A DNA stretch of 64,000 nt from Wolinella sp. (GTDB lineage Bacteria > Campylobacterota > Campylobacteria > Campylobacterales > Helicobacteraceae): contig JBQMYQ010000004.1 of the NCBI GenBank assembly GCA_052173415.1, forward strand, positions 4,703-68,702. Reading direction: 5' to 3'. Positions 1 to 64,000 of the stretch are shown here, one piece after another. A program made the position numbers and the translations under genes. Positions within the stretch are counted from its first letter, which is position 1. Each line of letters begins with the position of its first letter. A model generated the notes under the pieces. It was given only the letters and a program-made list of their open reading frames with translations. It made no database searches and was not told the DNA's origin.

Positions 1-474
1 GTCATCATTCACGCAGGTAGCGTGATTGGGAGCGATGGCTTTGGTTATGCACATACCAAAACGGGCGAACATATCAAAATCTATCACAACGGCACCGTCG
101 TCCTCGAAGATGACGTGGAGCTCGGGGCGAATAACTGTATCGATCGGGCGGTTTTTGGGCAGACACGCATTAAGCGCGGAAGCAAGATTGATAACCTCGT
201 GCAAATCGCCCATAATTGCGTGCTAGGCGAGCATTCTATCATCGTCTCTCAGGTCGGATTAGCCGGCTCGACCACCACGGGGCGCAATGTGATTTTTGGC
301 GGGCAAAGTGCGACAAGCGGACATCTGCACGTGGGAGATTTCACGACGATTGCAGCGCGCGGAGGCGTAACAAAAAGCATTCAAGGGGGCAAAACTTACG
401 CAGGATTCCCGCTTATGGAGCATAAAGAGTGGCTAAGAATGCAAGGTGCGCTCAAGGGAATTTTGAAAAAATAG
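1..474 (+). CDS. lpxD: UDP-3-O-(3-hydroxyacyl)glucosamine N-acyltransferase, C-terminal part (5' end outside window)
   Basis: The frame is open from base 1. Hexapeptide-repeat beta-helix sequence ([33 protein letters not shown]) is typical of the LpxD C-terminus. Confidence 0.85.
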
Positions 475-516
475 CAAGAATCGCGTGCAAGTAAGAACAG
501 GTAAGAACAAGAACAA

Positions 517-555
517 GTAAGAATCGGCGCGGGTTTAGGGGCGCAGGATTCTTAC
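517..555. terminator. Hairpin between convergent lpxD and transporter genes (GTAAGAATC / GATTCTTAC arms), preceded by tandem GTAAGAAC copies at 491-498 and 501-508
   Basis: 9-bp inverted repeat at 517-525 and 547-555, read directly. It lies between two convergent stop codons. Confidence 0.4.
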
Positions 556-614
556 CTGCACAAATTTGGAGCGCGCGAGCTTCAAAAATTAATAAAATGG
601 AGCGGCAGAGCCCC

Positions 615-1535
615 TTAGATTCCTCCGATAAAATGGTGTGCCAAATAGAGATACAGAGGCAAGAGTGCGGCAAAAAGTAGCGAGCTAACAAATACGGCGG
701 CGGCGACTTGCTCGGGTTTGCAATCATACAACGCGGCTAGGCTTACATTATTGACCGCCATGGGGACGCAAAGCTGGAGAAAAAGCACTGTTTTTGTAAG
801 AATCGAGAAAGGCAGAAGCGGAATAAGTAAGAGCGAAAGCAACGGCACAAATAGGAGCTTCCCGCCCACGCTCCATGAAAGTAGCGCGGGATTAATCTCT
901 TTGGCACGGATTGCGCACAAATATGTGCCAAGGAGGATTAGCTGGAGCACCAGCGCGGCGTATGCACCCATTTTGAGTGAATGATCAAACGCGCTAGGAA
1001 TCGCCACCCCACCCATGCTCCACAAAAGCGCGAAAATCGCCGCCCAGATAATGGGGAGCTTCACGATATTAAGGAGCGATTCCTTGAGGGAAAATTGCCC
1101 GCGTGAATAGAAATAGACCCCGATAATATAGACAAAAAAGGTATTTGCAATCGCAATGAGGCTCGCATGATAGAGTGCCTCTTCGCCATAGATCGCAAGC
1201 ACGATCGGGAGCCCGATATTGCCCGTGTTGCCGACGGTAGCATTCATGCTTAAAAGCGAGCGATCTCTTGGGTCACTAAAGCTCAGATAGCCAAAAAACA
1301 GCACGATTCCTAGAGCCAAAAACGTGAGTGCCAGATAAGAGAGCGGAAGTGTAAGCGAGGAGTAATCAAAGGGCTTGCGCGTGAGCCCCCAAATCGTCAA
1401 AAACGGCTGCAACAAATAGATAGATACGATGGTGAGCGTGCGCTCGTGCAGCTGTGCGCCAAAGATCTGCTTCGCGCCAAATCCAAGCAACACGAAAACA
1501 TAGATCGCCACAATCGCCATGAGGGCTTGTGCCAT
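615..1535 (-). CDS. AEC (auxin efflux carrier) family permease
   Basis: 306-aa polytopic membrane protein. N-terminus (IVAIYVFVLLGFGAKQ) and overall pattern resemble AEC/malonate-type transporters. Confidence 0.7.
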   Translation of the reverse strand: MAQALMAIVAIYVFVLLGFGAKQIFGAQLHERTLTIVSIYLLQPFLTIWGLTRKPFDYSSLTLPLSYLALTFLALGIVLFFGYLSFSDPRDRSLLSMNATVGNTGNIGLPIVLAIYGEEALYHASLIAIANTFFVYIIGVYFYSRGQFSLKESLLNIVKLPIIWAAIFALLWSMGGVAIPSAFDHSLKMGAYAALVLQLILLGTYLCAIRAKEINPALLSWSVGGKLLFVPLLSLLLIPLLPFSILTKTVLFLQLCVPMAVNNVSLAALYDCKPEQVAAAVFVSSLLFAALLPLYLYLAHHFIGGI

Positions 1536-1662
1536 GAGATTCCTAGAAGTTTTGTGTGGATTATAGCAACTATTTTAGGGGCGATACTAAAACGGGGCAT
1601 GTGTTATAATTTGCGCCACTTCTAAAGCTTAGAATTAAGGAAACATCATCAAAACAGAGTAT

Positions 1663-4272
1663 TTGTTCATCACGGCTAGCGCGATTCTTATCTTTTTGGG
1701 GATGGCGACTATTTTGGGAGATTTGGGGCTTGTAGGTCGCTATGGGACGAGCTTTGCAGAGTTTAATCTCCGATATTTCGGCGCGCTCTCCTACCTCTAC
1801 CCCTTCGCGCTCCTCTATCCGCTCTATCACCTCTATCATGAGCAGAGCCTCACGCTACGGCGAATCGAGCTTGTGCTCTCTTTTATGTTGCTTTTTTTCT
1901 GCCTATTGCTTATGCAGGCTCTAATCTTTAAAATCCCCTTTGATGGCATGATTGGACGGGCGATTATAAGGCTTCTCTACCCGCTTATCGGAATGTTTGG
2001 AATCTGGCTCATCATCGCCACAGGAATCTTCTTGGCAGGTTTGATGTTCTTTAATCAAAGTATTGAGGGAATCCTCGCGCATTTTAGGGGGCTCTATCTA
2101 AAAATGGCTCGATTCCTCGCCGCATTTTGGCAGACAAACGGGGAATCTAGCGAAGAATCGCCCAAAAGTCAGGACTTGCAAAAAGCACCCGAGCAAAAAC
2201 AAGATAAGAAACTAGGGGACGAAAAATTAGAGGAATCAGAGCCACTAAACGATGCTCCCCTAATTAACGAAGCCACAGAGGAATCTGCCCCTCTAGCACG
2301 AGAGCCACAAAAAGAGAGTATTACGCAAGATACCGCTATTGAGGCTTCCACGAGCCACTGCGTAGAGCTGCATTCCATGGAGATTCCCATGCAATTTGAA
2401 GAGGAAGATAATTACGCAAAACTTGTGCGCCTCATCAAAAAACCCAAAACCACAGAACTTACTCCAAGCACTAGCTTCCAAATCACTCAGGAATCCGCAC
2501 TAAAATCCCACACACATTCCCTGCCAAATAATGCACAAGAGCGCAAGAGCGAGCTTGTGAATAAAGAGGATTTAGCTTCAAGCGTTTCCCCCACATCTCC
2601 CGATTTTAAGGAAGCTACGCACGATACCCTTTCTGATTCCCTTTTAGAGAATACCTCGCACACTTTTACTCAGGGAATTCCCTCTAAAACGCACGATTCC
2701 CAGCCAAAAGCACCACTTTATACCACTTCTCGCACCGCCACGCTGAATGAAGCCAAAAATCCCGCCCAAAATGCGCAAAAAGCGAGCGATTCCCCCGTGA
2801 TCATCAAAGAGCTTGAGGAGAATATCGCACTTTTAAGCACACTTGATTTTGGGGAATCGAGCAAGCCAAAGGGTTTCAAGCTCCCGCATTTGGACTTTTT
2901 GCAAAAGCCAAGTGGGCAGCACGTCGAGATTGACGAAGATGAGATTGATCGTAAAATCCAAGATCTGCTCGGCAAGCTTAAGATGTTCAAAATCGAGGGC
3001 GATATCGCGCGCACCTACTCAGGTCCGATTGTGACGACGTTTGAATTCCGCCCCGCACCAAGCGTGAAGGTCTCGCGGATTCTTACGCTTGAAGATGATT
3101 TGGCGATGGCACTAAAAGCCAAAACCATACGCATTCAAGCCCCCGTGCCCGGCAAAGATGTCGTAGGAATCGAGATACCCAACAAGGACGTCGAGACTAT
3201 CTACCTGCGCGAGATTTTGGAGAGTGAGCTTTTTTTAAAATCAAGCTCGCCCCTCACGCTCGCGCTGGGTAAAGACATCGTGGGCAAGCCCTTCATCACG
3301 GATCTTAAAAAGCTCCCGCACCTCCTCATCGCCGGCACAACGGGTAGTGGCAAAAGTGTCGGAATCAACGCCATGATCCTCTCGCTTTTGTATAAAAATT
3401 CTCCCGATGATTTGAAGCTCATCATGATTGACCCCAAAATGCTTGAATTTTCCATTTACAACGACATTCCACACCTCCTAACGCCCGTGATTACGCAGCC
3501 CAAAAAAGCCATCACCGCGCTAGGAAATACCGTCGCGGAGATGGAGCGGCGTTATGAGGCGATGAGCAAAGCTAAGACGAAAAATATCGAAAACTATAAC
3601 GACAAAGCGCGCAAAGAGGGCTTCGCTCCCTTCCCCTACATCGTCGTGATTATCGATGAGCTGGCGGATTTGATGATGACGGGGGGCAAAGATGTGGAGT
3701 ATTCCATCGCGCGCCTAGCCCAGATGGCGCGAGCCAGCGGAATCCACCTCATCGTCGCGACCCAACGTCCGAGCGTGGATATTGTGACGGGATTAATAAA
3801 AGCGAATTTGCCCTCAAGAATCAGCTACAAAGTGGGGCAGAAAATCGACTCTAAGGTCATTTTGGACTCCTTTGGCGCAGAATCGCTCCTAGGTCGCGGC
3901 GATATGCTCTTCACGCCTCCGGGCGGGGGAGGAATCGTGCGCTTGCATGCGCCATGGAGTAGCGAAACAGAGATTGAAAAAATCGTCGAATACCTAAAGT
4001 CTCAGCGCGTCGCAGAGTATGATGAGAGCTTTTTGGGCGATGATGAGGAAGGGTTTGTAAAAGCGGGTAGCAGCAGCGAGGAGAGTGGCGATGAGCTCTA
4101 TGAAGAGGCGAAGCGAATTATTTTGAGTGACAAAAAGACCTCCATTAGCTATATTCAGAGGCGGCTTAGTATCGGCTATAACAAAGCGGCGAATATCATT
4201 GATGAGATGGAGAAGCGCGGATTCCTATCGCCACCAAACAGTAAAGGGAATCGAGATATCATCGGCACTTGA
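1663..4272 (+). CDS. ftsK: DNA translocase FtsK
   Basis: N-terminal TM helices, a long acidic/Ser-Thr-rich linker, and a C-terminal FtsK/SpoIIIE ATPase (Walker A GTTGSGKSV, DELADLMM) plus a gamma domain (SISYIQRRLSIGYNKAANIIDEME). TTG start. Confidence 0.9.
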   Translation: MFITASAILIFLGMATILGDLGLVGRYGTSFAEFNLRYFGALSYLYPFALLYPLYHLYHEQSLTLRRIELVLSFMLLFFCLLLMQALIFKIPFDGMIGRAIIRLLYPLIGMFGIWLIIATGIFLAGLMFFNQSIEGILAHFRGLYLKMARFLAAFWQTNGESSEESPKSQDLQKAPEQKQDKKLGDEKLEESEPLNDAPLINEATEESAPLAREPQKESITQDTAIEASTSHCVELHSMEIPMQFEEEDNYAKLVRLIKKPKTTELTPSTSFQITQESALKSHTHSLPNNAQERKSELVNKEDLASSVSPTSPDFKEATHDTLSDSLLENTSHTFTQGIPSKTHDSQPKAPLYTTSRTATLNEAKNPAQNAQKASDSPVIIKELEENIALLSTLDFGESSKPKGFKLPHLDFLQKPSGQHVEIDEDEIDRKIQDLLGKLKMFKIEGDIARTYSGPIVTTFEFRPAPSVKVSRILTLEDDLAMALKAKTIRIQAPVPGKDVVGIEIPNKDVETIYLREILESELFLKSSSPLTLALGKDIVGKPFITDLKKLPHLLIAGTTGSGKSVGINAMILSLLYKNSPDDLKLIMIDPKMLEFSIYNDIPHLLTPVITQPKKAITALGNTVAEMERRYEAMSKAKTKNIENYNDKARKEGFAPFPYIVVIIDELADLMMTGGKDVEYSIARLAQMARASGIHLIVATQRPSVDIVTGLIKANLPSRISYKVGQKIDSKVILDSFGAESLLGRGDMLFTPPGGGGIVRLHAPWSSETEIEKIVEYLKSQRVAEYDESFLGDDEEGFVKAGSSSEESGDELYEEAKRIILSDKKTSISYIQRRLSIGYNKAANIIDEMEKRGFLSPPNSKGNRDIIGT

Positions 4273-4348
4273 GGCACAAGCGTGTGTGGTTTTGTGGTAA
4301 AATCTCTTTCTTTTGCAAGAGGAATCCCGCAAAAACAAGGAGAAACGC

Positions 4349-4804
4349 ATGAAGAAGCAGGCAAGCTCGCTAAAATCCGCGAAGCGTTACCTCTTCTTTT
4401 GTGTCGGCGAGGAACGCTTTGGAATCGAGATTTTATGGGTGGTGGAGATGGTTCCCCTCTCCGATACGATTCCCCTGCCCAAAGCACCAAATTTCATCTT
4501 AGGTATGATGAATTTGCGTGGGAGGAATATCCCCATCGTGGATCTTAGCAAACGACTAGGAATCCCAAAAAGAGCTACAAATCCTTTTGAAGTAGTGATT
4601 CTTGTGCGATTTAATGAGATTGAGGTGGGATTCCTTGTTGATGAAGTCGATGAGGTTGGGAGTGAAAAAGACGAACTATTATCGGCGCAAAAGCTTGATT
4701 CCCTTGAGGAATCCTACGCAGAAAATATCATCAAAGAGCGACATCAGCAGGCAGTCGTCATTCTAAAGCCTGAAGTGTTGCTTAAAAATCTTATCTTGTC
4801 ATAA
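4349..4804 (+). CDS. cheW: Chemotaxis coupling protein CheW
   Basis: CheW-like domain (YLFFCVGEERFGIEI..VPLPKAPNFILGMMNLRGRNIPIVDL). ATG at 4349 follows AAGGAG, so it is preferred over the track start at 4313. Confidence 0.85.
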   Translation: MKKQASSLKSAKRYLFFCVGEERFGIEILWVVEMVPLSDTIPLPKAPNFILGMMNLRGRNIPIVDLSKRLGIPKRATNPFEVVILVRFNEIEVGFLVDEVDEVGSEKDELLSAQKLDSLEESYAENIIKERHQQAVVILKPEVLLKNLILS

Positions 4805-4822
4805 ATTAAAGGGGTGCATATC

Positions 4823-6814
4823 ATGAGAGAGATGACACTAGGGGTGAAAATCCGACTAGGCTTTGGTCTTATTCTAGTAATTGCAATTTTGCTCGGAGCG
4901 ATGGGAATCCACAACATGGAGAGTGCCGAAGATGTCGCAGATGAGCTTGCTAGCATTCAAGTCCCTAGGGCGAATCTTTCAGCAAAGATTCTTGCAGATA
5001 TTAACGCCCTGCGCTATCACATGCGGGCTTTTGTCTTGATTGATGATCCTGTAGAGCTTAAAAAAGCCAAAGAGCAATTTACCGCACTGCGTGCAACACT
5101 AGTGGAGATAAAGACCCTCGGGACACAGCAAAAAATTAACGACCTCATCGAGAAAGAGGCTCTAATCTCTGAGGCACTTAAGGAGCTAGTCGCCGCGACC
5201 CAGCGACTTGAGACGATCGCACAAAAGCGACAAGACGCAGATCGCGCAATCGGCGAGAGCGGAATCGTGCTTGCCGAAAATCTCGATGCTTACATCACTA
5301 CGCAGCTGCAAAATCTCCGCAATGAGACTAATAACAAATCCACAAAAACAACACACCTTCAATCAAGAGTGCAGAAAATCAGTAGCATATTCTCAATCCT
5401 AAATTATGTCTCTAATGCCCGAATTTTGGGTCAGCGCGCGCAGGTATTGCGCGACTCGGATATGCTAAACACTGCGATTACGCAATTTAGCTCGGTCTAT
5501 CCGCTCATTGATTCCATCAAACGAGCGACTACCAAGGGCGAGAACATGCGAAAGCTCGAAAAAGTCGAAGGGGCGGTGCATCAATACGAACGCATTATGG
5601 GGGATTTTATTACCTTTAATCGAGAGATTGCGACTGAACAAGCAGCATTAGTGAGTGCCTCTGCAGAAGTGATGAAACTCGCTGCAAGTATCGCAAATAC
5701 CGCTTTACAAAGCACAACTCATCTAAGCAATCACACGGCAGATTCCCTTGCGAATGCTTCTTTTACGATGCTCCTTGGGCTTATTGTCGCGCTTGTTATC
5801 GGGCTAGTTTCAAGCTTTTACATCATTCGCGGTATTACTCGTCCGCTCACAGAGGCAGTGTATACCATCACAGAGGCGAATGCACAAGTGCTCAGTGCCT
5901 CAAATCAGATCGCCGATTCCTCTACATTGCTCGCAGAAGGGTCAAATGAACAAGCCAGCTCAGTGCAGCAGATAAGCGCGACGATTGAGGAGAGCACCGT
6001 CATCAACAACCAAAATGCCGAAAATGGACGCGAAGCAGATACGCTTGCTAAAGCGGCTAATTATTCCGCTAAGCAGGGCAATGAAAAGGTGCAGCAGCTC
6101 ATGGACGCAATGGGCAGAATCACAGAAGCAAGTCAAAAGATTGCCAAAATTATTAAGACTATTGATGAGATTGCATTCCAGACCAACCTGCTCGCGCTCA
6201 ATGCCGCAGTCGAAGCGGCGCGGGCAGGCGAACATGGGCTGGGATTCGCCGTGGTCGCCGATGAGGTTAAGAATCTCGCTCAAAGAAGCGCGGAAGCAGC
6301 TAAAGAGACTGCAGCGATCATCGAAAATGCGATTGAGGAGATCAAAAATGGTAGCCAAATTGCCCGCGATACAAATGATAGCTTCACGGAAATTTTAGAA
6401 AATGTCCAAAAAACCTCCGAACTTATCGGCGAAATTTCAGTCTCCATTAGAGAGCAGGCTGAGGGCATGAACCAAGTCGCCTCGGCGATGGGACAAGTAG
6501 ATAGTGTAACGCAACAAAATGCCGCGAGCTCGGAGCAAGCAGCTGCTGCGGCTGAAGAGCTCAATGCTCAAGCCCTATCGATGATGCAGAGCACGCAAAA
6601 CATTGCACGACTTGTAGGGTTGGATGTTACCTCTCTTTTAGGCGAGGAGGGCACAACTTCACGCATGAGTGTAAAAGAGAAAGCATTGCGATACCTACCC
6701 AAGCAGATTTCCTATAAAAAGCGCGAGGATCGATACAGCCTTGCAGCAAAAGAACATCGCTCAAAAGAGGAAGAGATTTTCCCGCTCAATGCTAATGACT
6801 TAAAAGAGTTTTAG
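4823..6814 (+). CDS. Methyl-accepting chemotaxis protein (two TM helices, periplasmic helical-bundle sensor, HAMP, MA domain)
   Basis: Highly conserved MCP signalling hairpin ([43 protein letters not shown]). ATG at 4823 has a better RBS spacing than GTG at 4814. Confidence 0.9.
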
Positions 6815-10192: not shown

Positions 10193-12364
10193 CTAAAGCG
10201 AGACTAGAGGATAACTGCCCCCCCCCCCCCCGATTCCTACATTATTCATCTGAACATAATCGGGTGCTTGCATAACAAGTTTTCGCGAGGGTTCGCTAAT
10301 GTAATATCCTTGAGAATAATCCACACCAAAGCCTTTAATCATCTCAAAGACCTCTTTACTATGAACAAACTCTGCGACCGTCTTAATCCCTAGCCGTTTG
10401 CTAAATTCCACAATTGTCTGGGCGATGATTTGCGAATTGCGATCGGAATCGGAGTTTTTAATAATCGACGCATCAATCTTAATCACATCGACATTGAGGC
10501 GAAGAATATGGGCGAAATTCGAATACCCACTTCCAAAATCATCAATCGCGATCGAACAGCCAAGCCGCTTCATGCGCTGGATAAAATCATCAACAATTTC
10601 GTAGTTATCAATTCCCTCCGATTCCAAGATCTCAAAGAATATCCGATTCGCCACGCCATGACGCTGCACTTCGGAGGTAATGTATTCGACGGTATCGGAA
10701 TTTAGAATATCATCAATGGAGACATTAATGGAAAATTCGCAATCCAAATCCTTAAATGTCCTGCACGCATCAGCGACGATTGCACGCGTAATACGATGAT
10801 AGAGACGCGCTTTTTTTGATATATCAATAAAAAAGGGCGGATAAACCTTGCCATCTTCGCCGATGAGCCGCGCAAGGCATTCAAATTTATAAATCTTGCG
10901 CGTTTGATTATCAAACACCGGCTGAAAATAACAGACGATACGATGCTCATTGAGGGCATTTTTCAGCATACGAATCCAGCGGAAATTCTCCTCATACTCT
11001 TTCATCACCTTCATCGTATCATTATAGATTAGGTAGGGTTTATTGCGCTTTTTGGCGAGTTTAAGTGCAATATCCGCACGGGTAAGGACGGAATCACTAT
11101 CGCCATAGCACATTCCCGCAGAGATTTGAATATGGATCTCCTGCTCTTTTAAGAATATTAGATGAGAATCAACCTCGCGGTGGATTCTCGCACTTAAGCT
11201 TTCTAGATCCTCGCTACTAGGGCATTTAGGATCAAGTAGCGCGTATTCATCGGCTTGAAGCTTGTAGAGCTTGAAACGACTTTGGACGTTATAGTTTAGC
11301 AGTCGCTTGGCAATCTCCTTTAAGACAAAATCACCTACCTCCGTGCCATAAAAGTCATTGACTTCTTTGAAAGAATCGATATTAAGAAGGATTAAAAAGG
11401 GCGAAGAAGCGAGCTTCAAATCCTCCAAAAGACGCGTGCGATTGGGCAAAGAGGTGAGCTTATCGACATAGAGCTGCTCTTCTAGGAGGCGATTTTTCTG
11501 CTGAATTACCTGCATGTTATGCTTGAGTTCGCGATTAAGCTCCTCAAGCTTTGCGCGCGAATGCTCAAGCTCCTCTTTGAACCATTTCTTATCCGTTACG
11601 TCAATCATATTGACAACCGCGACAAAACGCCCCTGAAACTCAACAGAATTAACGCTAATATCTACGTATCGCACCTTGCCCGCTTTGGTCTTGACACGTG
11701 TCTCTAAATAGCGTCTTGTAGTGCAACCGATACATTCAAGCGATGAGCCGATCTCTTCAAAAATCTCAGAGCACGCCCCCTGCACAATCTTTAGAAGCGA
11801 ACCCGCCAAAAGCTCACTCTTTGAATACCCTATGATCGACTCGAGGGATTTATTCGCATAGATGATTTCATTCTCACTCAAAAGACAGATTCCCACGGGA
11901 GAATTGTCTGCGACAATGTTAATAAGCGTATCTTTCTCTTGGATATCCTTCTGCGCGCGAGTGTAATGAATGCCTGAGAGAGCCCTTTTGATTGTCTTAA
12001 CTAAGGTTCTATCGTTGACAGGCTTTAGGATATAGCCATCGATTCCTATCTGGATTGCCTTAGCAAGGAGATCTGAATCATCGTGCGCAGTGATAATGAT
12101 AATCGGCGTGTTGGGATTAAGCTCCTTAATCTTCTTGCTCATCGCCAACCCATCAAGCTCGGGCATAACGACATCAGTCATGACAAAATCAGGAGAGTGC
12201 TGCTTGAATGCTTCTAGACCCTCTTTGCCATTTTTTGCCAAATAGACTTCTTGAAATCGACGGCGCAAAAAAGTAGCAAATATCTCTAAAACCTCTAGTT
12301 CATCCTCGACAAGAAGCACTCGGAAGGATTTGAAAAAATCCTGTTCTGTCCCATTTTTTATCAT
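10193..12364 (-). CDS. Response-regulator receiver / PAS / degenerate GGDEF / EAL protein (probable c-di-GMP phosphodiesterase)
   Basis: REC domain (LLVEDE..DFVMTDVVMPELDG..KP), a PAS region, and a GGDEF-like domain with QADEY in place of GGDEF. EAL domain motifs are present (ECLARL, DDFGSGYSN, KIDASII, QGYY). Confidence 0.85.
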   Translation of the reverse strand: MIKNGTEQDFFKSFRVLLVEDELEVLEIFATFLRRRFQEVYLAKNGKEGLEAFKQHSPDFVMTDVVMPELDGLAMSKKIKELNPNTPIIIITAHDDSDLLAKAIQIGIDGYILKPVNDRTLVKTIKRALSGIHYTRAQKDIQEKDTLINIVADNSPVGICLLSENEIIYANKSLESIIGYSKSELLAGSLLKIVQGACSEIFEEIGSSLECIGCTTRRYLETRVKTKAGKVRYVDISVNSVEFQGRFVAVVNMIDVTDKKWFKEELEHSRAKLEELNRELKHNMQVIQQKNRLLEEQLYVDKLTSLPNRTRLLEDLKLASSPFLILLNIDSFKEVNDFYGTEVGDFVLKEIAKRLLNYNVQSRFKLYKLQADEYALLDPKCPSSEDLESLSARIHREVDSHLIFLKEQEIHIQISAGMCYGDSDSVLTRADIALKLAKKRNKPYLIYNDTMKVMKEYEENFRWIRMLKNALNEHRIVCYFQPVFDNQTRKIYKFECLARLIGEDGKVYPPFFIDISKKARLYHRITRAIVADACRTFKDLDCEFSINVSIDDILNSDTVEYITSEVQRHGVANRIFFEILESEGIDNYEIVDDFIQRMKRLGCSIAIDDFGSGYSNFAHILRLNVDVIKIDASIIKNSDSDRNSQIIAQTIVEFSKRLGIKTVAEFVHSKEVFEMIKGFGVDYSQGYYISEPSRKLVMQAPDYVQMNNVGIGGGGGSYPLVSL
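10218..10231. repeat. Homopolymeric C14 tract (G14 on the coding strand) inside the last 13 codons of the REC-PAS-GGDEF-EAL gene
   Basis: Read directly: ..actg(c)14gattcc... It encodes the GGGGG run of the C-terminal tail. Confidence 0.95.
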
Positions 12365-12567
12365 TGCTTGTAGATCCTAACTCATAAAATAGATAGCCCA
12401 AACAAAGCTTGCCATGCTTTTCAAGCTCATTGCACGCTATAAAACGTATCAAAAAGCCTTTCGCACTTAGAAATATTGGCATTGTATAGCAGGAAGACTG
12501 TAATTTTGCAAAAATTATAAAAAAATCATATATTGATCATAAAACAAATCCGCAAAGCTCTAAATAA

Positions 12568-13488: not shown

Positions 13489-13491
13489 CGC

Positions 13492-43245: not shown

Positions 43246-43251
43246 GCACTT

Positions 43252-47236: not shown

Positions 47237-47247
47237 AGGGGGAATCG

Positions 47248-47748: not shown

Positions 47749-47761
47749 CCCTTGATTTTTG

Positions 47762-47795: not shown

Positions 47796-47806
47796 TGAAG
47801 CTGAAG

Positions 47807-48756: not shown

Positions 48757-48765
48757 TTTTATCCA

Positions 48766-51096
<2,331 letters not shown>

Positions 51097-52164: not shown

Positions 52165-52332
52165 AGCAGATTCCTTAAATATTTAAATTTTAATAGAAGT
52201 AGTAGAGGAGAGTGAAAATGTGAAAAGGCTCTACTAACATTCTTGGAATAGGGATTTTTGCTGTGAAAATGTCCCATCTCATTATTCACATTTATTCACT
52301 TTAGGGTTGTGTCATTATATCGAAGCTTTGGT
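52165..52332. other. oriC sub-region (oriC2-like) in the dnaA-dnaN intergenic region: AT-rich tract, TAG-AAG-TAG-TAG trinucleotide run, five DnaA-box-like elements
   Basis: GTGAAAA at 52212-52218, 52220-52226 and 52263-52269 (TTTTCAC on the other strand). TTATTCACA at 52282-52290 and TTATTCACT at 52292-52300. AT-rich 52175-52193. TAGAAGTAGTAG at 52194-52205. Confidence 0.6.
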
Positions 52333-53673: not shown

Positions 53674-53785
53674 AATGTGAATAAACGTGTGAATACTAGC
53701 GCACTCCGAGTAAGAGAAGACTAAAATTTGCCGATTCCAAAAGTTATTTTAAGTGATGTAATAATCAAAGGGAATATGTGAATAT
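53667..53785. other. oriC sub-region (oriC1-like) in the dnaA-ruvC intergenic region, with four DnaA-box-like elements
   Basis: TTTTCACA at 53667-53674 overlaps the dnaA start. TGTGAATAA is at 53676-53684 and TGTGAATAC at 53688-53696. TGTGAATAT at 53777-53785 overlaps the ruvC GTG start. Transcription diverges here. Confidence 0.6.
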
Positions 53786-54260
53786 TTTGGGAATCGACCC
53801 GGGAAGTCGGAACTGTGGCTATGCGATTTTAAAATACGATACAAAAGGTGGGAATCGGCTTATTGAGGCGGGTCTGATTAAGATTAAAGGGCGTGTGTTA
53901 CAGCACCAGATTTTGGAATTTGTCGAGGGAATCGACATGGTGCTGAAGTCTCATGATATTGATGAGGTGGCGATTGAGGATATTTTTTATGCTTATAATC
54001 CAAAAACACTCATTAAGCTCGCTCAATTCCGTGGGGCATTAAGTCTTAAAATCCTTCAAGATGTGGGTAATTTCCATGAATATACGCCACTTCAAGTAAA
54101 AAAGGCTCTCACGGGAAATGGCAAAGCTGATAAAAAACAAGTGGCATTCATGGTAAAACGCCTTTTGGGAATCAAGGGTGAAATTAAGCCACTAGATATT
54201 ACAGATGCGATTGCAGTAGCGATAACACACGCTCAGAGAGTTAAACTAGGAGGGAATTAA
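53778..54260 (+). CDS. ruvC: Holliday junction resolvase RuvC
   Basis: RuvC N-terminus ([16 protein letters not shown]) and conserved acidic residues. GTG start. Confidence 0.9.
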
Positions 54261-54262
54261 AA

Positions 54263-54877
54263 ATGAAAGTAACACTTTTGCAACACACTAGCCTGAAAGT
54301 CTGTGCGCACGCGATCCGCACATGTTGGCAGAGCTTTGAGCGAAGTGATGATGGCGGTGAGAAGGATTTGGAACTCATCGAGCGCGTAGGAAACAAAAAT
54401 AAGCACAAAAGCACATTAGAACATCTATTTTATACATTTTATATAGAGGGAATCTCCCGTGCGTGTCTGCAAGAGTTGGCACGCCATAGGATCGCTTCGC
54501 TTTCAGTCAAAAGCACGCGCTACACGCTAAAAGAGCTGAAAAAGGAGGAATCTTTCGGCAAAGATGACTTTGAGCGTGTGGGAAAATATCTCGTATTGAC
54601 CGGCGTTAAGAGCGTGGATTGTGCTTCAATTGCGGCATTAGAGAATTTGCGTGAAATTCTAAAAAGTGGTGTGAGTAATGATTATGCTAAATTTTGTATG
54701 CCTGAATGTTATAAAACCGAGCTGACATGGAGCATCAATGCAAGAGCTTTGCAGAATTTTCTCGAATTGCGCTCAGGTAAAAGCGCGCTATGGGAGATAA
54801 AAAAGCTAGCTAATAGCGTATATGAGGCGATTCCCAACGAACATCGATACCTTTTTGAGATTACTAAGGAATCGTAG
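54263..54877 (+). CDS. thyX: Flavin-dependent thymidylate synthase
   Basis: ThyX motif RHRIASLSVKSTRY. Confidence 0.95.
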   Translation: MKVTLLQHTSLKVCAHAIRTCWQSFERSDDGGEKDLELIERVGNKNKHKSTLEHLFYTFYIEGISRACLQELARHRIASLSVKSTRYTLKELKKEESFGKDDFERVGKYLVLTGVKSVDCASIAALENLREILKSGVSNDYAKFCMPECYKTELTWSINARALQNFLELRSGKSALWEIKKLANSVYEAIPNEHRYLFEITKES

Positions 54878-54943
54878 GGATTGATAAGAATCAACGCACT
54901 CCTCCGTCCAAGCCTCTATAATCGTCACTAAAAAGGAAAAAAT

Positions 54944-55372
54944 ATGGGGAATCTTGACCTCTATCTTCTCACTATTCATCTTTTTTGTGCCACACTCTTT
55001 ATCGGGACGGTCTTTTTTTGGGCATTTATCATTGATGTCGTGAGGAATCGCAACCCACACATCGATCTTGATGTCGCGGAGACGCTTATTTCGCGGCGTT
55101 TACGCCCCATTATGAGCGTGAATGTGACAGTGCTGCTACTTAGTGGCTTGGGGCTTTTTTATAATCGCTACGGCGCGTTGGCGGGCTTTGATACGCTTTA
55201 TGCTTATTTGTTGAGTGTGAAGGGAATCTTGGGCATTTTAGGGATAGGAACTTTTTATTTCATGCCTCAAATTATAAAAAATTTCAAAAACCAAGCTAAA
55301 GCCCATGATATCGCTCATCACGTGCTATTTTTCGTGATGATTCTTATCATTATTTTGGCAAAAATGCTCTAA
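54944..55372 (+). CDS. Hypothetical 4-TM membrane protein
   Basis: Four hydrophobic helices. No family assigned with confidence (distantly CopD-like). Confidence 0.45.
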   Translation: MGNLDLYLLTIHLFCATLFIGTVFFWAFIIDVVRNRNPHIDLDVAETLISRRLRPIMSVNVTVLLLSGLGLFYNRYGALAGFDTLYAYLLSVKGILGILGIGTFYFMPQIIKNFKNQAKAHDIAHHVLFFVMILIIILAKML

Positions 55373-56598
55373 AGAGTTTTACCCTCATATGCGCGAAGGG
55401 AATCGGGAAAAATTTCCAGCGAGCGCGCTAAAACCCCCTGAAAAAGGGAGAGGGCGATTCCATAGTTGGTGATGGGTAAGTGAGATTCTTGGGCTTTGGC
55501 GAGGCGTGAGAGCATGGCTGCTTGATTAAGTGTGCAAGCTCCACAGTGGATAATGAGCTTGTAGCTTTTGAGATTTTCCGGGTAATCTTTGCCATTGCAA
55601 TGGTGGATTTCTAACGTCTTGCCTGTGAATTGACGCAACAGGTGAGGAATTTTTACCCTCCCGATGTCATCTTCTAGCGCGTGATGGGTGCAAGCTTCGG
55701 CGATGAGGACTTTATCGCCCTCTTTTAGTGTGTGAATTGCTCGTGCACCGCGGCTTAGAATCGTAAGGTCGCCTTTGAGGCGCGCCATGAGAATGGAAAA
55801 GGTCGTAACTTTCACATTTTCAGGCGTGTGGGCGATGGTTTCGCGCACGCATTGGGAATCGCACACTACCAAAGCAGGAAGCTCTCTGAGGCGTTGAAAG
55901 AGGCTTTGGAGGTTGGATTCCTTAGTAATAATACAGATAGCTTCGTGATCTAAAGCATCACGGATTGCTTGCACTTGCGGGAGAATCAGCCTTCCTTTAG
56001 GGGCTTGAAGATCTATGGGGGTAACGAGCACAATCAAAGAATTAGGTGTGATTAAATCCCCTAGCAGCGAAGGCGTAGCATACCACGATGGAGGTGCAAG
56101 ACGGATAATTGCTTCCAAAATCACAGGATAATCTGCTTGATTCTTCGCGCTTAAGGATATAAGGGGTGCGCCAAATCCCTGAATATATGCCAAAAAATTC
56201 TCACTAGGGGGATTGATGTCTATCTTATTGCAAACAATAAGGAAGGGAATCTCTAGCTCCTTAAAGCGTTTAATCAATTCCTCTTCCTCCGTGCCCCACG
56301 CCCCCTCCTCGGTAACAAGCAGAGCGAGGTTGATACGCTTTAGTGTCTCAAAACTTCTACTAATCCGCTCCTTACCCAATAGACCATCATCATCTATCCC
56401 CGCAGTATCAATAAGGAGAATCGCCCCTAAAGGGTGGAGCTCCATCGCCTTTTCCACCGGATCAGTGGTCGTGCCCGGGAGATCAGAGACGATGGAGAGA
56501 TTTTGCTGGGTGATGAGGTTTAAGAGCGAAGATTTTCCTACGTTGCACTTGCCAAAGATTCCAATATGAATTCGCATACCTTTAGGCGTTTGAAGCAT
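55369..56598 (-). CDS. hydF: [FeFe]-hydrogenase H-cluster maturation GTPase HydF
   Basis: GTPase P-loop (GKCNVGKSSLLN, DTAG, NKID). C-terminal cluster-binding CxH...HCxxC motif (EACTHH ... IHCGAC). Confidence 0.85.
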   Translation of the reverse strand: MLQTPKGMRIHIGIFGKCNVGKSSLLNLITQQNLSIVSDLPGTTTDPVEKAMELHPLGAILLIDTAGIDDDGLLGKERISRSFETLKRINLALLVTEEGAWGTEEEELIKRFKELEIPFLIVCNKIDINPPSENFLAYIQGFGAPLISLSAKNQADYPVILEAIIRLAPPSWYATPSLLGDLITPNSLIVLVTPIDLQAPKGRLILPQVQAIRDALDHEAICIITKESNLQSLFQRLRELPALVVCDSQCVRETIAHTPENVKVTTFSILMARLKGDLTILSRGARAIHTLKEGDKVLIAEACTHHALEDDIGRVKIPHLLRQFTGKTLEIHHCNGKDYPENLKSYKLIIHCGACTLNQAAMLSRLAKAQESHLPITNYGIALSLFQGVLARSLEIFPDSLRAYEGKTL

Positions 56599-57634
56599 AT
56601 CGATTCCTTAAAATGAAACGTTGGCTATCGCCATTTTCAAGGGATATGGATTCCCCTAGATGGGTAATTTGGTTAGTGAGTTTGGCGTAGGAATCTTGCG
56701 ACTCATCTTGGATTGAGCCTTTACCCGGATAGAGTTGATAGAGTGTGCGCATTTCTCCTTCAGTGATGGCGGGCATTATGACGTTTGCTCCGCTTTGCAA
56801 TGCGAGGAATCGCCCCTCTGGGTGTAAAGCCTCCATAGCACTGGTGGCGGGGATATTAATGTAGGGCATTAAAAGGCGCAAGAGTGCCATAACTTTACGT
56901 GAGGTGTGGAAGTCTCCGCCTCGGGCGTGCTCTAGCGGAGTGTGTGGCGCAGGGATAAAAGGACCAATCCCAACCATATCAAAGTCTGATTCCTGAAAAA
57001 AGAGTAAATCCTCAGCGATTGATTCCAAGGACTGTCCGGGTAGCCCCACTAGAGAGCCACTTCCTGTTTCAAAGCCCAGCTTTTGGAGATTTTCTAGGCA
57101 AGTAAAGCGATTTTGATGGCTCATGTTAGGGTGGAGCGTGGCATAGAGTTGTGAATTTGTTGTCTCGATTCTTAAAAGATAGCGATTTGCACCCGATTCC
57201 TTGTAGGCTTGATACTCCTCAAAACTTTTTTCCCCAAGGCTTAAGGTAACACGCGCGCCATGATGATGGATAGCACTAATAAGCTCACACAATTCATCTC
57301 TATCATAGGCATGACTTTCGCTACTTTGAAGCACCAAAGTTTGATAGCCAGAATTAATAGCCTTTTGTGCAAGATTGATCGCCTCTTGAAGGGGGATTTT
57401 GTAGCGTTTTAGATGCCGATTCCCAGCGCGCAATCCACAATAAGAGCATGTTTTGACACAGATATTAGAGAGCTCTAGGAGTGCTTTAAGATGAATGGAA
57501 GGGCGAGCATATCGCAGGCGCACCTCATGGGCGCATTTAAACAGCGTCTCATCGTAAGAAGAATCCGCGAGAACTTTCACCAACTCTTCTAAGCTCGCCT
57601 GTTGCTTTGCCATGATTTTCAGCACTAGCGACAT
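56582..57634 (-). CDS. hydE: [FeFe]-hydrogenase maturase HydE (radical SAM, BioB-like)
   Basis: CX3CX2C (CVKTCSYC) and a biotin-synthase-like fold. Sits between hydG and hydF. Confidence 0.8.
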   Translation of the reverse strand: MSLVLKIMAKQQASLEELVKVLADSSYDETLFKCAHEVRLRYARPSIHLKALLELSNICVKTCSYCGLRAGNRHLKRYKIPLQEAINLAQKAINSGYQTLVLQSSESHAYDRDELCELISAIHHHGARVTLSLGEKSFEEYQAYKESGANRYLLRIETTNSQLYATLHPNMSHQNRFTCLENLQKLGFETGSGSLVGLPGQSLESIAEDLLFFQESDFDMVGIGPFIPAPHTPLEHARGGDFHTSRKVMALLRLLMPYINIPATSAMEALHPEGRFLALQSGANVIMPAITEGEMRTLYQLYPGKGSIQDESQDSYAKLTNQITHLGESISLENGDSQRFILRNRYASNA

Positions 57635-57651
57635 GTTATCCCTATTTAGTG

Positions 57652-59124
57652 TTACACGTGGCAGTCTGTCCCACCTGCGCCAATCTTCTCTATCATCTCC
57701 TCGACCACTTGGGCGGCTTTGGGCAAGTGCTCTTTTAACATGCCAAGATATTTAGGGATAATTACCTCTTCCCCTATTTTTCTTACCTCGGGTGAGGCAT
57801 AGTCGCGGATATATTCCTTGAACGTAAGAATCCCATTGGGAATACAGAGATATTTGATCGTAGCTTGTTTGGCTAGGGGCATAAAATTACATCCTGTGCG
57901 TCCTTCACGATAGCATGAGGTGCAAAAGGAGGGTAGTCGCCCTGCACGCACCAGCTCCAAAATAAACTCGTCGATATTGCGGTGATCGCCAATGGCGAAT
58001 TGTTGATTATGGAGGTCATTGCCTTTTTGCTCTTTGGCATAGCCCCCGATTCCTATGTTTGTCCCTGCATCAGTCTGAGAAATGCCACATTTCTGCAACA
58101 TCAAGTCACGTAACTCCGGCTCTTCTCTAGCAGTAAGAATCGTGCCTGTAAAAGGACACATAAGACGTATGATGGCGGCGATTCTTACCAGTTCTTCATC
58201 GCTGACCGCATAAGAGGAATCGCCTTTTTCTTTGCAGGAGGTAAGTTTAATGCGGGGGAAGGAGATCGTATGAGGTCCAACACCAAAAATTCGCTCCAAA
58301 TCCATAGCATGATAAAGCATGGCTAAAATTTCATATTTCCAGTCATAAAGTCCAAAAAGCACGCCAATAGCTACATCATCTAAACCCGCTTTCAAGGCGC
58401 GATGAAGCGCAAAAAGACGCCATTTGTATGCGCCCTTTAAAGTGTTTTGGGGGTGGATTTTCTCATAAGTGCCACGATGATAGGTCTCTTGAAATACCTG
58501 ATATGTGCCAATCCCCTCCGCCTTGATTGCACGATACTCCTCTTCAAACATTGGAGCAGCGTTGATATTGACACGACGGATTTCGCTCTTATCTTTCTTG
58601 ACGGAATAGATGGTTCTCACACTTTTAGCGATGTAGGCGTAATCACTCTTGGGGTGCTCGCCATAGACGGCGATGAGACGCTTTTGACCGTTATCTAAAA
58701 GTGCCCCTATCTCCTCTATAAGCTCCTTTTCTTGGAGTGTCTTTTTTGACATTTCATCGTTAGAGGAGCGAAAACCACAGTAAGAGCAGTTATTTACGCA
58801 GGGATTGGAGATATAGAGCGGGGAGAATAGCACGATACGATTCCCATAGACCTCCTCTTTGATAAAAGTGGCGGCTTTATAGACCTCTTCCCATAGATCT
58901 TCATCTTGAATGTGGAGTAAAGTCGCCGTCTCTTCGGGCGTAAGCATCGTGCCTTTGTAGGCATTTTTTTTTGCCTTTTCGATGACACCTAACACCTGCT
59001 CACGCGATGGATTCTCACTCGTCTTAAGAACGCGCGCTATCTCTTCATCGTCGATGAAATTTTGAAACTCGCTCTCTCTCTCCCAAGTCTTGATTCTCTC
59101 GAAGCGATCTTTTGTCCAAGACAT
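57652..59124 (-). CDS. hydG: [FeFe]-hydrogenase maturase HydG (radical SAM tyrosine lyase)
   Basis: CX3CX2C (CVNNCSYC) plus the HydG-specific C-terminal CX2CX22C motif (CTSC...22 aa...C). ATG at 59124 follows GGAGG, so it is preferred over the track start at 59160. Confidence 0.9.
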   Translation of the reverse strand: MSWTKDRFERIKTWERESEFQNFIDDEEIARVLKTSENPSREQVLGVIEKAKKNAYKGTMLTPEETATLLHIQDEDLWEEVYKAATFIKEEVYGNRIVLFSPLYISNPCVNNCSYCGFRSSNDEMSKKTLQEKELIEEIGALLDNGQKRLIAVYGEHPKSDYAYIAKSVRTIYSVKKDKSEIRRVNINAAPMFEEEYRAIKAEGIGTYQVFQETYHRGTYEKIHPQNTLKGAYKWRLFALHRALKAGLDDVAIGVLFGLYDWKYEILAMLYHAMDLERIFGVGPHTISFPRIKLTSCKEKGDSSYAVSDEELVRIAAIIRLMCPFTGTILTAREEPELRDLMLQKCGISQTDAGTNIGIGGYAKEQKGNDLHNQQFAIGDHRNIDEFILELVRAGRLPSFCTSCYREGRTGCNFMPLAKQATIKYLCIPNGILTFKEYIRDYASPEVRKIGEEVIIPKYLGMLKEHLPKAAQVVEEMIEKIGAGGTDCHV

Positions 59125-59182
59125 GATTATCCTCCATAGGTAAAGGATTCCCTCGCCCATACAGAGGAATCCTTTAAGTTAT

Positions 59183-61583: not shown

Positions 61584-61858
61584 AAATCCTCCTCGTTTTG
61601 ATACACGCCCTATAGATAAGACCCGTTTCATAAGAGAATATTCTGCTAAGGCGTGCGCCGACTCTACAACAGTTAAAATAAAATTCTATATTAATACCAT
61701 AAATGGAGAATGTAATTAAGATGGGAGTATGGAGAGACGAATATCGGGTAAAATATATTTAAAGACACCATGTGCGCACATGACATCGCTTATCATGTGC
61801 CGGGTTATGTCATGATTTCGCAGTTTTATCAAACTTCTCTATTAGCAGATGATTCATT

Positions 61859-61884
61859 TAGGTAGATTCCTAGGAATCTACCTA
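61859..61884. promoter_or_regulatory. 26-bp perfect palindrome TAGGTAGATTCCTAGGAATCTACCTA, 15 nt upstream of the radical SAM gene start
   Basis: Read directly. The same intergenic region also holds CATGTGCGCACATG (61769-61782) and the pair CATGACAT/ATGTCATG (61779-61786 / 61807-61814). Confidence 0.85.
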
Positions 61885-61898
61885 TTCAGATTAGAGTT

Positions 61899-62762
61899 AT
61901 GAGTTTAGTAATCAAAAAAGTATCAACAAAAAATATAATTGTAAAATCAAACCTTATTCCTGAGGGATTTTCTGCGAATCCTTATATTGGTTGCACTCAT
62001 GCGTGTAAATATTGCTACGCTTCATATATGAAAAATTTTACTAATCATGACGAGTCTTGGGGTGAATTTATTGATATAAAACTTTGGGAATCTATCCCGA
62101 ATAAACATCGCTATACAGGCAAAGAGATTGTCATAGGCACTGCAACAGATCCTTATCTTCCTCAAGAGGCAATATATAAGCGCACCTTAAAACTATTAGA
62201 AGAGCTAAAAGCAACAAAAGCCAAGATCATTCTCATAACCAAATCGACTTTAATTTTAAGAGATATTGAGCCCATTGGTAATATTCCTAATATACAAATT
62301 TTATTTTCTATAAATTCACTTGATGAAAATTTTCAAAATAAAATAGATCGAGCACCGAAAGTTCATGAGCGACTGGAAGTGATGAGAGAATTTCATGATA
62401 GAGGAATTAAAACGCTCTGTTTAATTGCTCCAGTATTTCCGAAGATTACTCAACCTTTTGAGATTATAGACGCCATCAAGGATCGGTGCAGTGGTATTTT
62501 GATAGATAAACTAAAACTTCGTGGCGAATCTAGAGATAGGATTTTGGAGTTCATTAGGTGTGAATACCCGCAACATTTTGCGCTCTATTGTGATATTTTT
62601 CTTAGAAATATAGATACCTTCTGGGAATCTTTAGCAAGAGATTTATTGAATTTTTCACACACTAAAGATTTTCCTTTAGAGATAGAAATTCAATATAAAA
62701 AGCGAGAAAAGCCCCTAAAAAAGGAGCTAAATCTCTTTGATTTTATTTCACAACGACACTAA
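61899..62762 (+). CDS. Radical SAM protein, SplB/DNA-photolyase-like family
   Basis: CX3CX2C near the N-terminus (CTHACKYCYA). The length and pattern resemble SPL-family radical SAM proteins. AT-rich gene. Confidence 0.7.
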   Translation: MSLVIKKVSTKNIIVKSNLIPEGFSANPYIGCTHACKYCYASYMKNFTNHDESWGEFIDIKLWESIPNKHRYTGKEIVIGTATDPYLPQEAIYKRTLKLLEELKATKAKIILITKSTLILRDIEPIGNIPNIQILFSINSLDENFQNKIDRAPKVHERLEVMREFHDRGIKTLCLIAPVFPKITQPFEIIDAIKDRCSGILIDKLKLRGESRDRILEFIRCEYPQHFALYCDIFLRNIDTFWESLARDLLNFSHTKDFPLEIEIQYKKREKPLKKELNLFDFISQRH

Positions 62763-64000
62763 AAATCGTTCCATTTCGACGAACCAAAATCCGTTTCATT
62801 TTACCTCTGTTTTGTTTCATTGCTTCATTAAAAGAAGCAATATCTTTAATGAGGTAATTTTCAACCCGCACGATCACATCGCCCTCGCTAAAACCAAGCT
62901 CACTCGCTATGCTATCCTCGCGCACGCCCGTAACGAGCACGCCTTTGGTATCGGGAGCGATTCTGTATCGCTGTTTTAGTCGCTCATCAAGCGCGCCAAT
63001 TGAGAGCCCATCAATGCCACTATTACCATGCGCGATTCCGCTACCATTTTGCGGTGCTTCTGCGAGTTTAACCGTTGTGCTGAATTCCTTTTTATCACGA
63101 TTGTAGAGCACTTTTATTTTGTCGTTTGGCGAGTAGTTACCGATGATATTCTTCAAATCCGAGGCACTTTTTACTACTTTATCATCGATTTTTACGATAA
63201 GATCCCACACCTTGAGACCTGCTTTTTGTGCGGGGGAATCGGGTTCGATTCCAATTAAAACCGCCCCCTCTTGATCTCCATAGGAATCGCGCAATTCCTG
63301 TGTAAGGTCTTGAATAGAAACCCCCATGTATCCCCGCTCAATCACGCCTTTATCAATTAAAGTAAGTGCGATTTTTTTCACCATTTCAGAGGGAATTGCA
63401 AATCCGATGCCATGATTCCCTCCTGTGCGCGAGAGAATCGCTGTATTGATTCCCACCAATGCTCCACGGGAATCCACCAGCGCACCACCGGAGTTTCCGG
63501 GGTTAATGGACGCGTCGGTTTGTATAAAATTTTCATAATCATTAATCCCGATTCCGCTTTTATTGAGGGCTGAAATGATCCCTTGAGTCACGCTCTCTCC
63601 GACGCCAAAGGGATTCCCAATGGCAAAAACCACATCGCCCACTTTCGCTTCACTGCTATCTGCAAATGAGATGATCGGGAGCTCTTTCCCCTTGATTTTT
63701 ATCACGGCCAAATCACTGCGCGGATCCTTGCCCAGCACTTTTGCTTCGTATTCCTTGCCATTTTCTGGTAGTGTGACGATGACTTTATCCGCGCCATCAA
63801 TGACGTGATTATTCGTGATGATATGCCCCTCTTTTGAGATGATCACCCCGCTCCCCAAACTGCGCTCGACCCGATCTTTGGGGACCATCTGATTAAACAT
63901 ATCACCAAAAAACTGCTGAAAAAACGGGTCATTAAAGAGTGGGTGATTTTGCCCGAGATTCCCCATCTGATTTTTAATCTTTTTTTGTGTCGAGATATTG
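62743..64000 (-). CDS. htrA: Periplasmic serine protease/chaperone HtrA (DegP), N-terminus outside window
   Basis: Strong similarity to H. pylori HtrA (NDPFFQQFFGD, GSGVIISK.G.I.TNNHV, FAIGNPFGVGESVTQGI.SALNKSGIGIN.YENFIQTDASINPGNSGGAL), with two PDZ domains. The frame stays open to base 64000. Confidence 0.95.
   Translation of the reverse strand, partial: NISTQKKIKNQMGNLGQNHPLFNDPFFQQFFGDMFNQMVPKDRVERSLGSGVIISKEGHIITNNHVIDGADKVIVTLPENGKEYEAKVLGKDPRSDLAVIKIKGKELPIISFADSSEAKVGDVVFAIGNPFGVGESVTQGIISALNKSGIGINDYENFIQTDASINPGNSGGALVDSRGALVGINTAILSRTGGNHGIGFAIPSEMVKKIALTLIDKGVIERGYMGVSIQDLTQELRDSYGDQEGAVLIGIEPDSPAQKAGLKVWDLIVKIDDKVVKSASDLKNIIGNYSPNDKIKVLYNRDKKEFSTTVKLAEAPQNGSGIAHGNSGIDGLSIGALDERLKQRYRIAPDTKGVLVTGVREDSIASELGFSEGDVIVRVENYLIKDIASFNEAMKQNRGKMKRILVRRNGTIFSVVVK

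Follow-up and report, generated by a model that had tools for sequence, protein, structure and literature searches.

Short words that saturate an entire genome are rare, and each of the known cases has led either to a mechanism or to a long-standing question. The DNA uptake sequences (DUS) of Neisseria and the uptake signal sequences (USS) of Pasteurellaceae, which are 9-12 bp long and occur about once per kb, led to uptake receptors. The word RAATTY led to methylation-gated uptake: it is methylated by the orphan D12 adenine methyltransferase CtsM (M.CjeIAI), with 27,514 sites in Campylobacter jejuni IA3902 (PMC4294202), and methylated DNA is needed for the first uptake step in C. jejuni (PMC8468864; summarized in bioRxiv 10.1101/2024.09.10.611283). 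The function of the cyanobacterial word HIP1 (GCGATCGC) is still being worked out; HIP1 has a reported link to orphan methyltransferases (PMC4390886), and transformation is more efficient when the word is methylated (bioRxiv 10.1101/2024.09.10.611283). Here we describe the hexamer GGAATC, read as GATTCC on the other strand, in a 64-kb stretch of a Wolinella sp. genome (contig JBQMYQ010000004.1, positions 4,703 to 68,702; hereafter the window), of which it is the commonest hexamer. It would be a third case of saturation by a methylation-type hexamer or octamer, in a lineage adjoining Campylobacter and Helicobacter.

The window holds 303 copies of GGAATC/GATTCC (4.7 per kb), 156 on the plus strand and 147 on the minus strand, with A-rich words ranking below it. 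An earlier note on this DNA, drawn up from its letters, had claimed a large excess, and every null model bears this out. In 100 dinucleotide shuffles the expected count was 48.2 ± 5.8 with a maximum of 62. With an observed/expected ratio of 6.2, the word shows the opposite of restriction-site avoidance. An order-3 Markov null predicts 98 copies (z = 20.7) and an order-4 null 197 (z = 7.6), and the z-score of GGAATC is the highest among the 2080 strand-pooled hexamers under Markov orders 1, 3, and 4. The first 2.9 kb (positions 1-2900), where the same note had counted 19 copies by hand, gave 19 again on recounting.

The unit is exactly six bases, because an order-5 model fully accounts for the 7-mers and 8-mers that contain GGAATC. 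A preference at the immediate flanks, suggested earlier as RGGAATC(G/C/T), was recovered as RGGAATC(G), with a purine at -1 in 251 of the 303 copies and a G at +1 in 139, and the flanks beyond these two positions carry no information. A longer repeat or a mobile element behind the word is ruled out, since the flanks further out are uninformative and the hexamer explains the 7-mers and 8-mers. The word is asymmetric: GGATTC has 82 copies against 303, and the palindromic extension GGAATCC only 61. Variants at the first base are far less frequent (AGAATC 85, CGAATC 19, TGAATC 14). Most one-mismatch neighbors examined are depleted (observed/expected 0.24 for TGAATC, 0.32 for CGAATC, 0.23 for GGCATC, 0.10 for GGAACC, 0.42 for GGGATC, and 0.43 for GGAAAC); AGAATC (1.42) and GGATTC (1.69) are not.

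Copies are single and dispersed, with Poisson-like spacing (coefficient of variation of the gaps 0.985), similar counts on the two strands in every 4-kb bin, and random orientation of neighboring copies. Gaps below 20 bp are rarer than expected at random (14 vs 27). No paired or terminator-type arrangement was found. The 64-kb window gave no tRNA or Rfam matches.

The excess is not an artefact of coding. The 59 genes called cover 93% of the window, and, as the earlier note had stated, the word falls in all codon phases and between genes: relative to the coding strand, the three phases hold 92/40/36 copies of GGAATC and 48/24/29 of GATTCC, so that all phases and both orientations are populated, and the density is higher in intergenic DNA (7.7-7.9 per kb) than in coding DNA (4.5 per kb). 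Codon usage was rightly judged insufficient, and amino-acid composition does not suffice either: when synonymous codons were shuffled with the amino acids and per-gene codon usage fixed, 57.5 ± 6.4 copies were expected in coding DNA, against 269 observed, and permuting the codon order lowered the expectation to 38. Another way to express this is to count the amino-acid-compatible sites, that is, those at which the encoded residues permit the word. GGAATC occupies 269 of 464 such sites (58%), where codon usage would predict 52.8. Of the 44 compatible sites in phase 1, 40 are written as GGAATC, and Gly-Ile is encoded as GGA-ATC in 92 of 148 cases. Control hexamers of like composition show no comparable filling of their compatible sites. 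The share used is uniform over the 59 genes (chi2 59.1, df 58, P = 0.44), and the two orientations are used equally per opportunity (168/278 and 101/186).

Proteins are hardly touched. The dipeptide skew reported from the translations was recovered for Asp-Ser (1.45x), Gly-Ile (1.32x), and Ile-Pro (1.29x), to which Asn-Pro (1.67x) can be added, but not for Glu-Ser (1.04x) or Gly-Asn (1.12x), and the further claim that protein composition is visibly skewed is not supported: the effect is small at most. In gyrB, dnaN, dnaA, and ruvC taken together, motif-rich and motif-free species alike have 24-36 compatible sites, and protein-level remodelling by GGAATC was not seen in these four conserved orthologues. 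What differs is the fraction used, namely 67% in the window, 52% in W. succinogenes, 38% in H. rodentium, and 4-17% elsewhere. Since the number of compatible sites is similar while the used fraction differs, the force works on synonymous positions; it acts at the DNA level, mainly at synonymous and non-coding positions. Synonymous codon choice in these genomes is thus locally dominated by a DNA-level signal, which matters for analyses of codon usage and selection.

The counts given earlier for the intergenic stretch 23321-23600 and for gyrB and dnaA were reproduced, whereas the tsdA-like gene holds one copy fewer than the five then reported:
1663-4272, plus strand: ftsK, with Pfam FtsK domains, a motif-rich example with 19 copies (7.3 per kb) and 19 of 30 compatible sites used.
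23324-23597, no strand: intergenic region between nifU and a DUF4197 gene, with 5 copies, at 23329, 23383, 23409, 23454, and 23589; it contains further GAWTC sites (AGAATC, GATTCT) and is without a longer repeat unit, the word being surrounded by short repeats at chance level only.
46112-47236, plus strand: gene for a TsdA-like dihaem cytochrome c (Pfam SoxA-TsdA_cyt-c), with 4 copies.
48766-51084, minus strand: gyrB, with 8 copies; it served for species identification and orthologue comparison.
52333-53673, minus strand: dnaA, with 5 copies and 5 of 6 compatible sites used.

The host had been taken for a Helicobacter. Its GyrB is 90% identical to that of W. succinogenes and 75-78% identical to those of Helicobacter species, and the DNA is thus from Wolinella. 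A Logan contig (L001) is identical to window positions 42052-56430, and an ENA/NCBI contig (L090) comes from a close relative, with 92.6% and 86% nucleotide identity over two blocks. For DNA of this genome outside the window, only short contigs of 6.8 and 3.3 kb turned up. For each relative species, about 15-22 kb around gyrB was compared. The core GAWTC (GAATC/GATTC) reaches 5.1-7.8 per kb in the window, in W. succinogenes, in a low-GC Wolinella-like lineage (L085), in H. rodentium, and in H. pullorum, 5.9 per kb in H. canadensis, and 4.4 per kb in H. ibis; Helicobacter sp. 11S02596-1, H. mustelae, H. anseris, and H. cappadocius have 2.1-2.7 per kb, about the number expected. Negative controls came from a GyrB peptide pattern search that gave 80 loci, mostly from distant bacteria because the patterns were too general; in 75 unrelated bacteria the observed/expected ratio of GGAATC averages 0.72 and does not exceed 1.68.

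The bases around the core change from lineage to lineage. AGAATC is commoner than GGAATC in the low-GC Wolinella-like lineage and in H. rodentium, an AGAATCT/AGATTCT-like (AGAWTCT-like) form prevails in H. pullorum, H. canadensis, and H. ibis, and the flank is relaxed in W. succinogenes. The related words GAGTC/GACTC are depleted, most strongly in the GAWTC-rich Helicobacter species, with 0 and 1 copies against about 13 expected. The earlier note had correctly remarked that GGAATC contains GANTC; it missed the GAWTC core with its lineage-specific flanks, the depletion of GAGTC/GACTC, and the like footprint of the RAATTY/CtsM system of Campylobacter. Great frequency in all frames, lineage specificity, and variant words in relatives are traits that GGAATC shares with words of the HIP1 type. 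As read from these sequences, lineage specificity with shifting flanks would be expected if a recognition protein changed its specificity. Relatives with and without GAWTC enrichment amount to a natural experiment.

Orthologue comparison, which the earlier note had proposed as a check, shows that the sites are shared more often than expected. In codon alignments, 17 of 51 window sites are common to W. succinogenes (7.2 expected), 17 of 32 W. succinogenes sites are common to the window (4.6 expected), and 8 of 13 H. rodentium sites are common to the window (1.5 expected), despite an overall identity of 67-70% and synonymous sites that are otherwise saturated. Where the window has GGAATC, motif-free species carry synonymous GGGATT, GGTATC, or GGCATT. 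Against the close relative L090, 74 of 100 GGAATC sites are kept (60 expected, P = 0.002), third codon positions diverge by 0.139 within GGAATC and by 0.205 elsewhere (P = 0.016), and non-coding divergence is 0.05 in the word versus 0.137 (P = 0.03). The word is thus maintained: motif sites evolve more slowly than neighboring neutral sites. Over window positions 38747-61121 there are 100 sites against 83 in the relative, and, because the window has 26 private sites and the relative 9 (P = 0.006), the comparison suggests a density that is still in flux among close lineages.

Inserted DNA is poor in the word. One gene departs from the uniform filling of the window:
37319-38392, plus strand: gene for a 357-aa HSDR_N-domain protein (PF04313/PF13588), of low GC (0.40), with 0 copies of GGAATC; the single stretch free of the word is delimited as 37231-38436.
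Its neighbors are mreC and a UDP-glucose dehydrogenase gene, and its sole domain resembles the N-terminal nuclease of type I restriction R subunits. Against 5.8 copies expected it has none (P = 0.003), and none of its 7 compatible sites is used (P = 0.002); it is the only outlier among the 59 window genes and lies within the largest GGAATC gap (36961-38611). A defence-type gene was thus probably inserted here in recent times. Similarly, an island of the low-GC Wolinella-like lineage with restriction-modification (R-M) genes and IS1595 has 3 copies against 17.2 expected (P = 3.5e-5), and the GmrSD gene of H. ibis has 4 against 12.9. These three inserted defence or mobile segments are thus poor in the word, just as DUS and USS are scarce in acquired DNA, and GGAATC is a property of resident DNA.

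Variable defence insertions adjoin the conserved thyX-ruvC-dnaA-dnaN-gyrB block in relatives. Contig L085 encodes a Bpu10I-like endonuclease, an m5C methylase, and an IS1595 transposase at 3012-6124; contig L089 (H. ibis) has GmrSD directly after gyrB, at 12316-14034; and contig L087 (H. canadensis) has a HinP1I-like R-M system next to argG, at 1-761. Another gene that was likely acquired lies at window positions 61899-62762 (plus strand); it has a GC of 0.33, a below-cut-off match to the NCBIfam entry 'radical SAM mobile pair protein B', and the word at only 2 of its 7 compatible sites.

What acts on the DNA word itself is thus a strong, strand-symmetric force that operates genome-wide in several related lineages. 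Codon bias, a family of repeats, a polar signal of the chromosome, and the avoidance of restriction sites do not account for it. The reading that we favor, with a probability of roughly 35%, is that GGAATC is a methylation-marked word for self-recognition or uptake, parallel to RAATTY and CtsM. What the sequences show is the statistical footprint, its distribution over the phylogeny, the slow divergence of motif sites, and the scarcity of the word in inserted genes; the methylation, the existence of the methyltransferase, and the role in uptake or recombination are proposed by analogy only. GGAATC would be a lineage-specific, genome-wide 'self' word read on double-stranded DNA, kept near saturation by a force acting on DNA and not on proteins. 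The mark would be set on the GAWTC core, preceded by a G in the window, by an orphan adenine methyltransferase, and DNA carrying the marked word would be preferred in uptake or recombination. Biased transfer, selection, or both would then spread the word through the resident genome, and newly acquired DNA would arrive without it.

A broader reading, which takes in the relatives, is somewhat more tentative. Wolinella and H. pullorum, H. rodentium, H. canadensis, and H. ibis may have in common an undescribed system of self-DNA recognition with a non-palindromic, GAWTC-based target, whose specificity would have drifted (GGAATC, AGAATC, AGAWTCT) and which would have driven more than half of the permissible sites to the word. 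Such a system, be it an uptake or recombination signal with a new receptor or a word-specific repair drive, would stand outside the CtsM, DUS/USS, and HIP1 families. The kind of phenomenon is known, as lineage-specific words at very high frequency; the sequence, its asymmetry, the host lineages, and the drift of the flank between sister taxa set GGAATC apart. An orphan GAWTC-type methyltransferase or a binding protein that tracks the trait would be predicted, as would word-dependent transformation, in organisms that can be cultured (W. succinogenes, H. pullorum). A possible gain would be better genetic tools for these organisms, such as HIP1 has brought for Synechococcus.

Several points weigh against a methylation-marked word. 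None of the 59 window proteins contains the adenine methyltransferase motif [DNS]PP[YFW], and a Pfam scan of 40 of the 59 found housekeeping proteins apart from the one with the HSDR_N domain. A D12 methyltransferase encoded next to argG in H. ibis, the only adenine methyltransferase seen in a related locus, was considered as the cognate enzyme and rejected as it fails to track the trait: close homologues occur in motif-free H. cappadocius, in H. pylori, and in many Campylobacter, and none from Wolinella is among its top 120 matches. In the literature we found neither a methylome nor a report of natural transformation for Wolinella, and no published description or function of an abundance of GGAATC/GATTCC, RGAATC, or GAWTC, only primers and unrelated eukaryotic motifs, which agrees with the earlier statement that no function had been described. 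GGAATC is asymmetric, as its ratio to GGATTC makes plain, whereas RAATTY and HIP1 are palindromes. In Campylobacter itself, uptake bias as the cause of the abundance of RAATTY is not proven. The same sequence statistics would also arise if the word were selected for something else or driven by repair, and each comparison species is represented by about 20 kb.

The first of these alternatives to consider, which we regard as rather unlikely, is a drive by repair or gene conversion, in which a sequence-specific mismatch-correction or nicking system turns near-matches into GGAATC and the word has no function of its own. The draining of one-mismatch neighbors, such as TGAATC (0.24) and GGAACC (0.10), would follow from such a drive, as would the scarcity of GAGTC/GACTC in the lineages richest in GAWTC, the uniform used fraction of compatible sites in all genes, and the behavior of motif sites as substitution sinks. 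To our knowledge, however, no enzyme of the very-short-patch type acts on an adenine-methylated or unmethylated GAWTC context, and we know of no MutHLS-type repair in Campylobacterota; both count against the drive. Moreover, AGAATC and GGATTC are not drained, and the depletion extends over many positions and includes transversions, unlike very-short-patch repair, which corrects T:G to C:G at one position. Classical repair of that kind is a misfit, and selection or drive on the whole word would fit the draining better. A precedent and a model for a repair drive exist in the possible tie to a methyltransferase that Elhai proposed for cyanobacterial HIP1 (PMC4390886).

We consider it unlikely that GGAATC is a binding or protection word, that is, a site favored by some abundant DNA-binding protein, such as a nucleoid, immunity, or defence self-marking factor, with each site under weak selection. 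The strand-symmetric and even scatter, the greater density in non-coding DNA, the rarity of very short gaps, and the conservation of sites above background are all consistent with it, and the genome is heavily shaped by word-level selection, with GGCC at 6 strand-counts against 427 expected in the window and GTAC at 2 against 136. However, no candidate protein was identified, weak selection on each of some 10,000 sites per genome would be hard to sustain without a drive, and the flank specificity differs between sister lineages.

There is next to no chance that GGAATC is a passive by-product of codon usage, dipeptides, dinucleotide bias, or restriction-site avoidance. In its favor, the codons GGA and ATC are frequent, the dipeptides Gly-Ile and Asp-Ser are in mild excess, and many restriction-type words are strongly avoided in the window. 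Nevertheless, the copies in coding DNA far outnumber those that amino acids and codon usage explain, the order-3 and order-4 nulls absorb all avoidance of 4- and 5-mers and leave GGAATC the top word, enrichment is strongest in non-coding DNA, and the orthologues of other species are written with other synonymous codons. Synonymous-codon shuffles, codon permutation, and Markov orders 1-4 exclude a codon, dipeptide, or dinucleotide artefact. The explanation is already refuted by the very tests that the earlier note had named, as the observed/expected ratio in the 64-kb window does not come near 1 under a dinucleotide- or codon-aware null. Least credible is a polar word of the chromosome, of the type of Chi, the signal for recombination by RecBCD/AddAB, or KOPS, which orients FtsK. 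These words, too, are short and over-represented, and the window encodes an FtsK with a gamma domain. Polarity of this kind is ruled out for the window by the absence of strand skew, overall, in any 4-kb bin, and along the 52 kb on one side of dnaA (127 vs 119 copies), and the density of GGAATC far exceeds that of known Chi or KOPS sites.

Other words are also biased in the window. Besides the near-absence of GGCC and GTAC, there is strong depletion of CCGG, GGCGCC (0), AGCGCT (4), TTCGAA, ATGCAT, GGATCC, and GGATG/CATCC (18 vs 124), a set that, judged from the words themselves, is the typical signature of several putatively active restriction systems. Over-represented hexamers other than GGAATC include CGATGA/TCATCG (144 vs 46), which also ranks first in Helicobacter sp. 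11S02596-1, and AAAGAG/CTCTTT (166 vs 58), the top word of W. succinogenes; the latter excess may reflect an over-represented Lys-Glu dipeptide. The GC content falls from about 0.48 (1-42 kb) to about 0.40 near the two-component genes, dnaN, dnaA, ruvC, and thyX (43000-56000), and the density of GGAATC is unchanged. At 55369-59160 (minus strand), and at 1-1258 of contig L090, genes for HydF and two radical-SAM maturases (HydE/HydG-like) adjoin those for the large and small subunits of an [FeFe]-hydrogenase and a cytochrome b, an ordinary metabolic locus.

How GGAATC relates to described systems can be judged from its core, its arrangement, and its density. GANTC and GAWTC are the specificities of HinfI and TfiI, and the enriched core thus coincides with a known specificity of adenine methyltransferases, a group that also includes CcrM and M.HpyAIV. 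We know of no genome-wide enrichment of the targets of such enzymes, and the genes of Alphaproteobacteria tend, if anything, to be depleted of GANTC. GAWTC- and GANTC-specific methyltransferases do exist, including a GAWTC enzyme from Pelagibacter (PMC8919816). With Neisseria DUS and Pasteurellaceae USS, GGAATC has in common that it is over-represented, lineage-specific, found on both strands and in coding sequences, and rare in recently acquired DNA. By contrast, DUS and USS are longer and sparser and often form inverted pairs in terminators, whereas GGAATC has 6 bp, occurs 4.7 times per kb, and is unpaired; their receptors (ComP, type IV pili) are not known to bear on GGAATC. HIP1 and the alternative cyanobacterial palindromes resemble it in being short words, with up to several copies per kb in all frames, that are lineage-specific and replaced by others in some lineages. 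HIP1, however, is an 8-bp GC-rich palindrome from another phylum, and the word of the window is a 6-bp asymmetric one built around GAWTC.

The closest known system is CtsM and RAATTY, from the same phylum, where each kb likewise holds several copies of a hexamer, distributed over both strands. In a fragment of a Campylobacter metagenome-assembled genome (L007, CAUPXB010000013.1, 45% GC), the top hexamer is AAATTT (observed/expected 5.1), and RAATTY occupies 144 of 235 compatible sites (61%, with 66.5 expected); its density is 18.9 per kb in intergenic and 7.4 per kb in coding DNA. This may be the first time that saturation by the CtsM word to such a degree has been put into figures of this kind. 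About 60% of compatible sites are thus used in both cases (58% vs 61%), and both words are about twofold denser between genes. The word itself differs, GGAATC is non-palindromic, and the reading for Wolinella is by analogy. In the window RAATTY shows no enrichment (126 of 461 compatible sites vs 115 expected; AATT observed/expected 0.62), and GAATC is depleted in the Campylobacter fragment (11 vs 30), so that each lineage has a word of its own, and the signature is shared.

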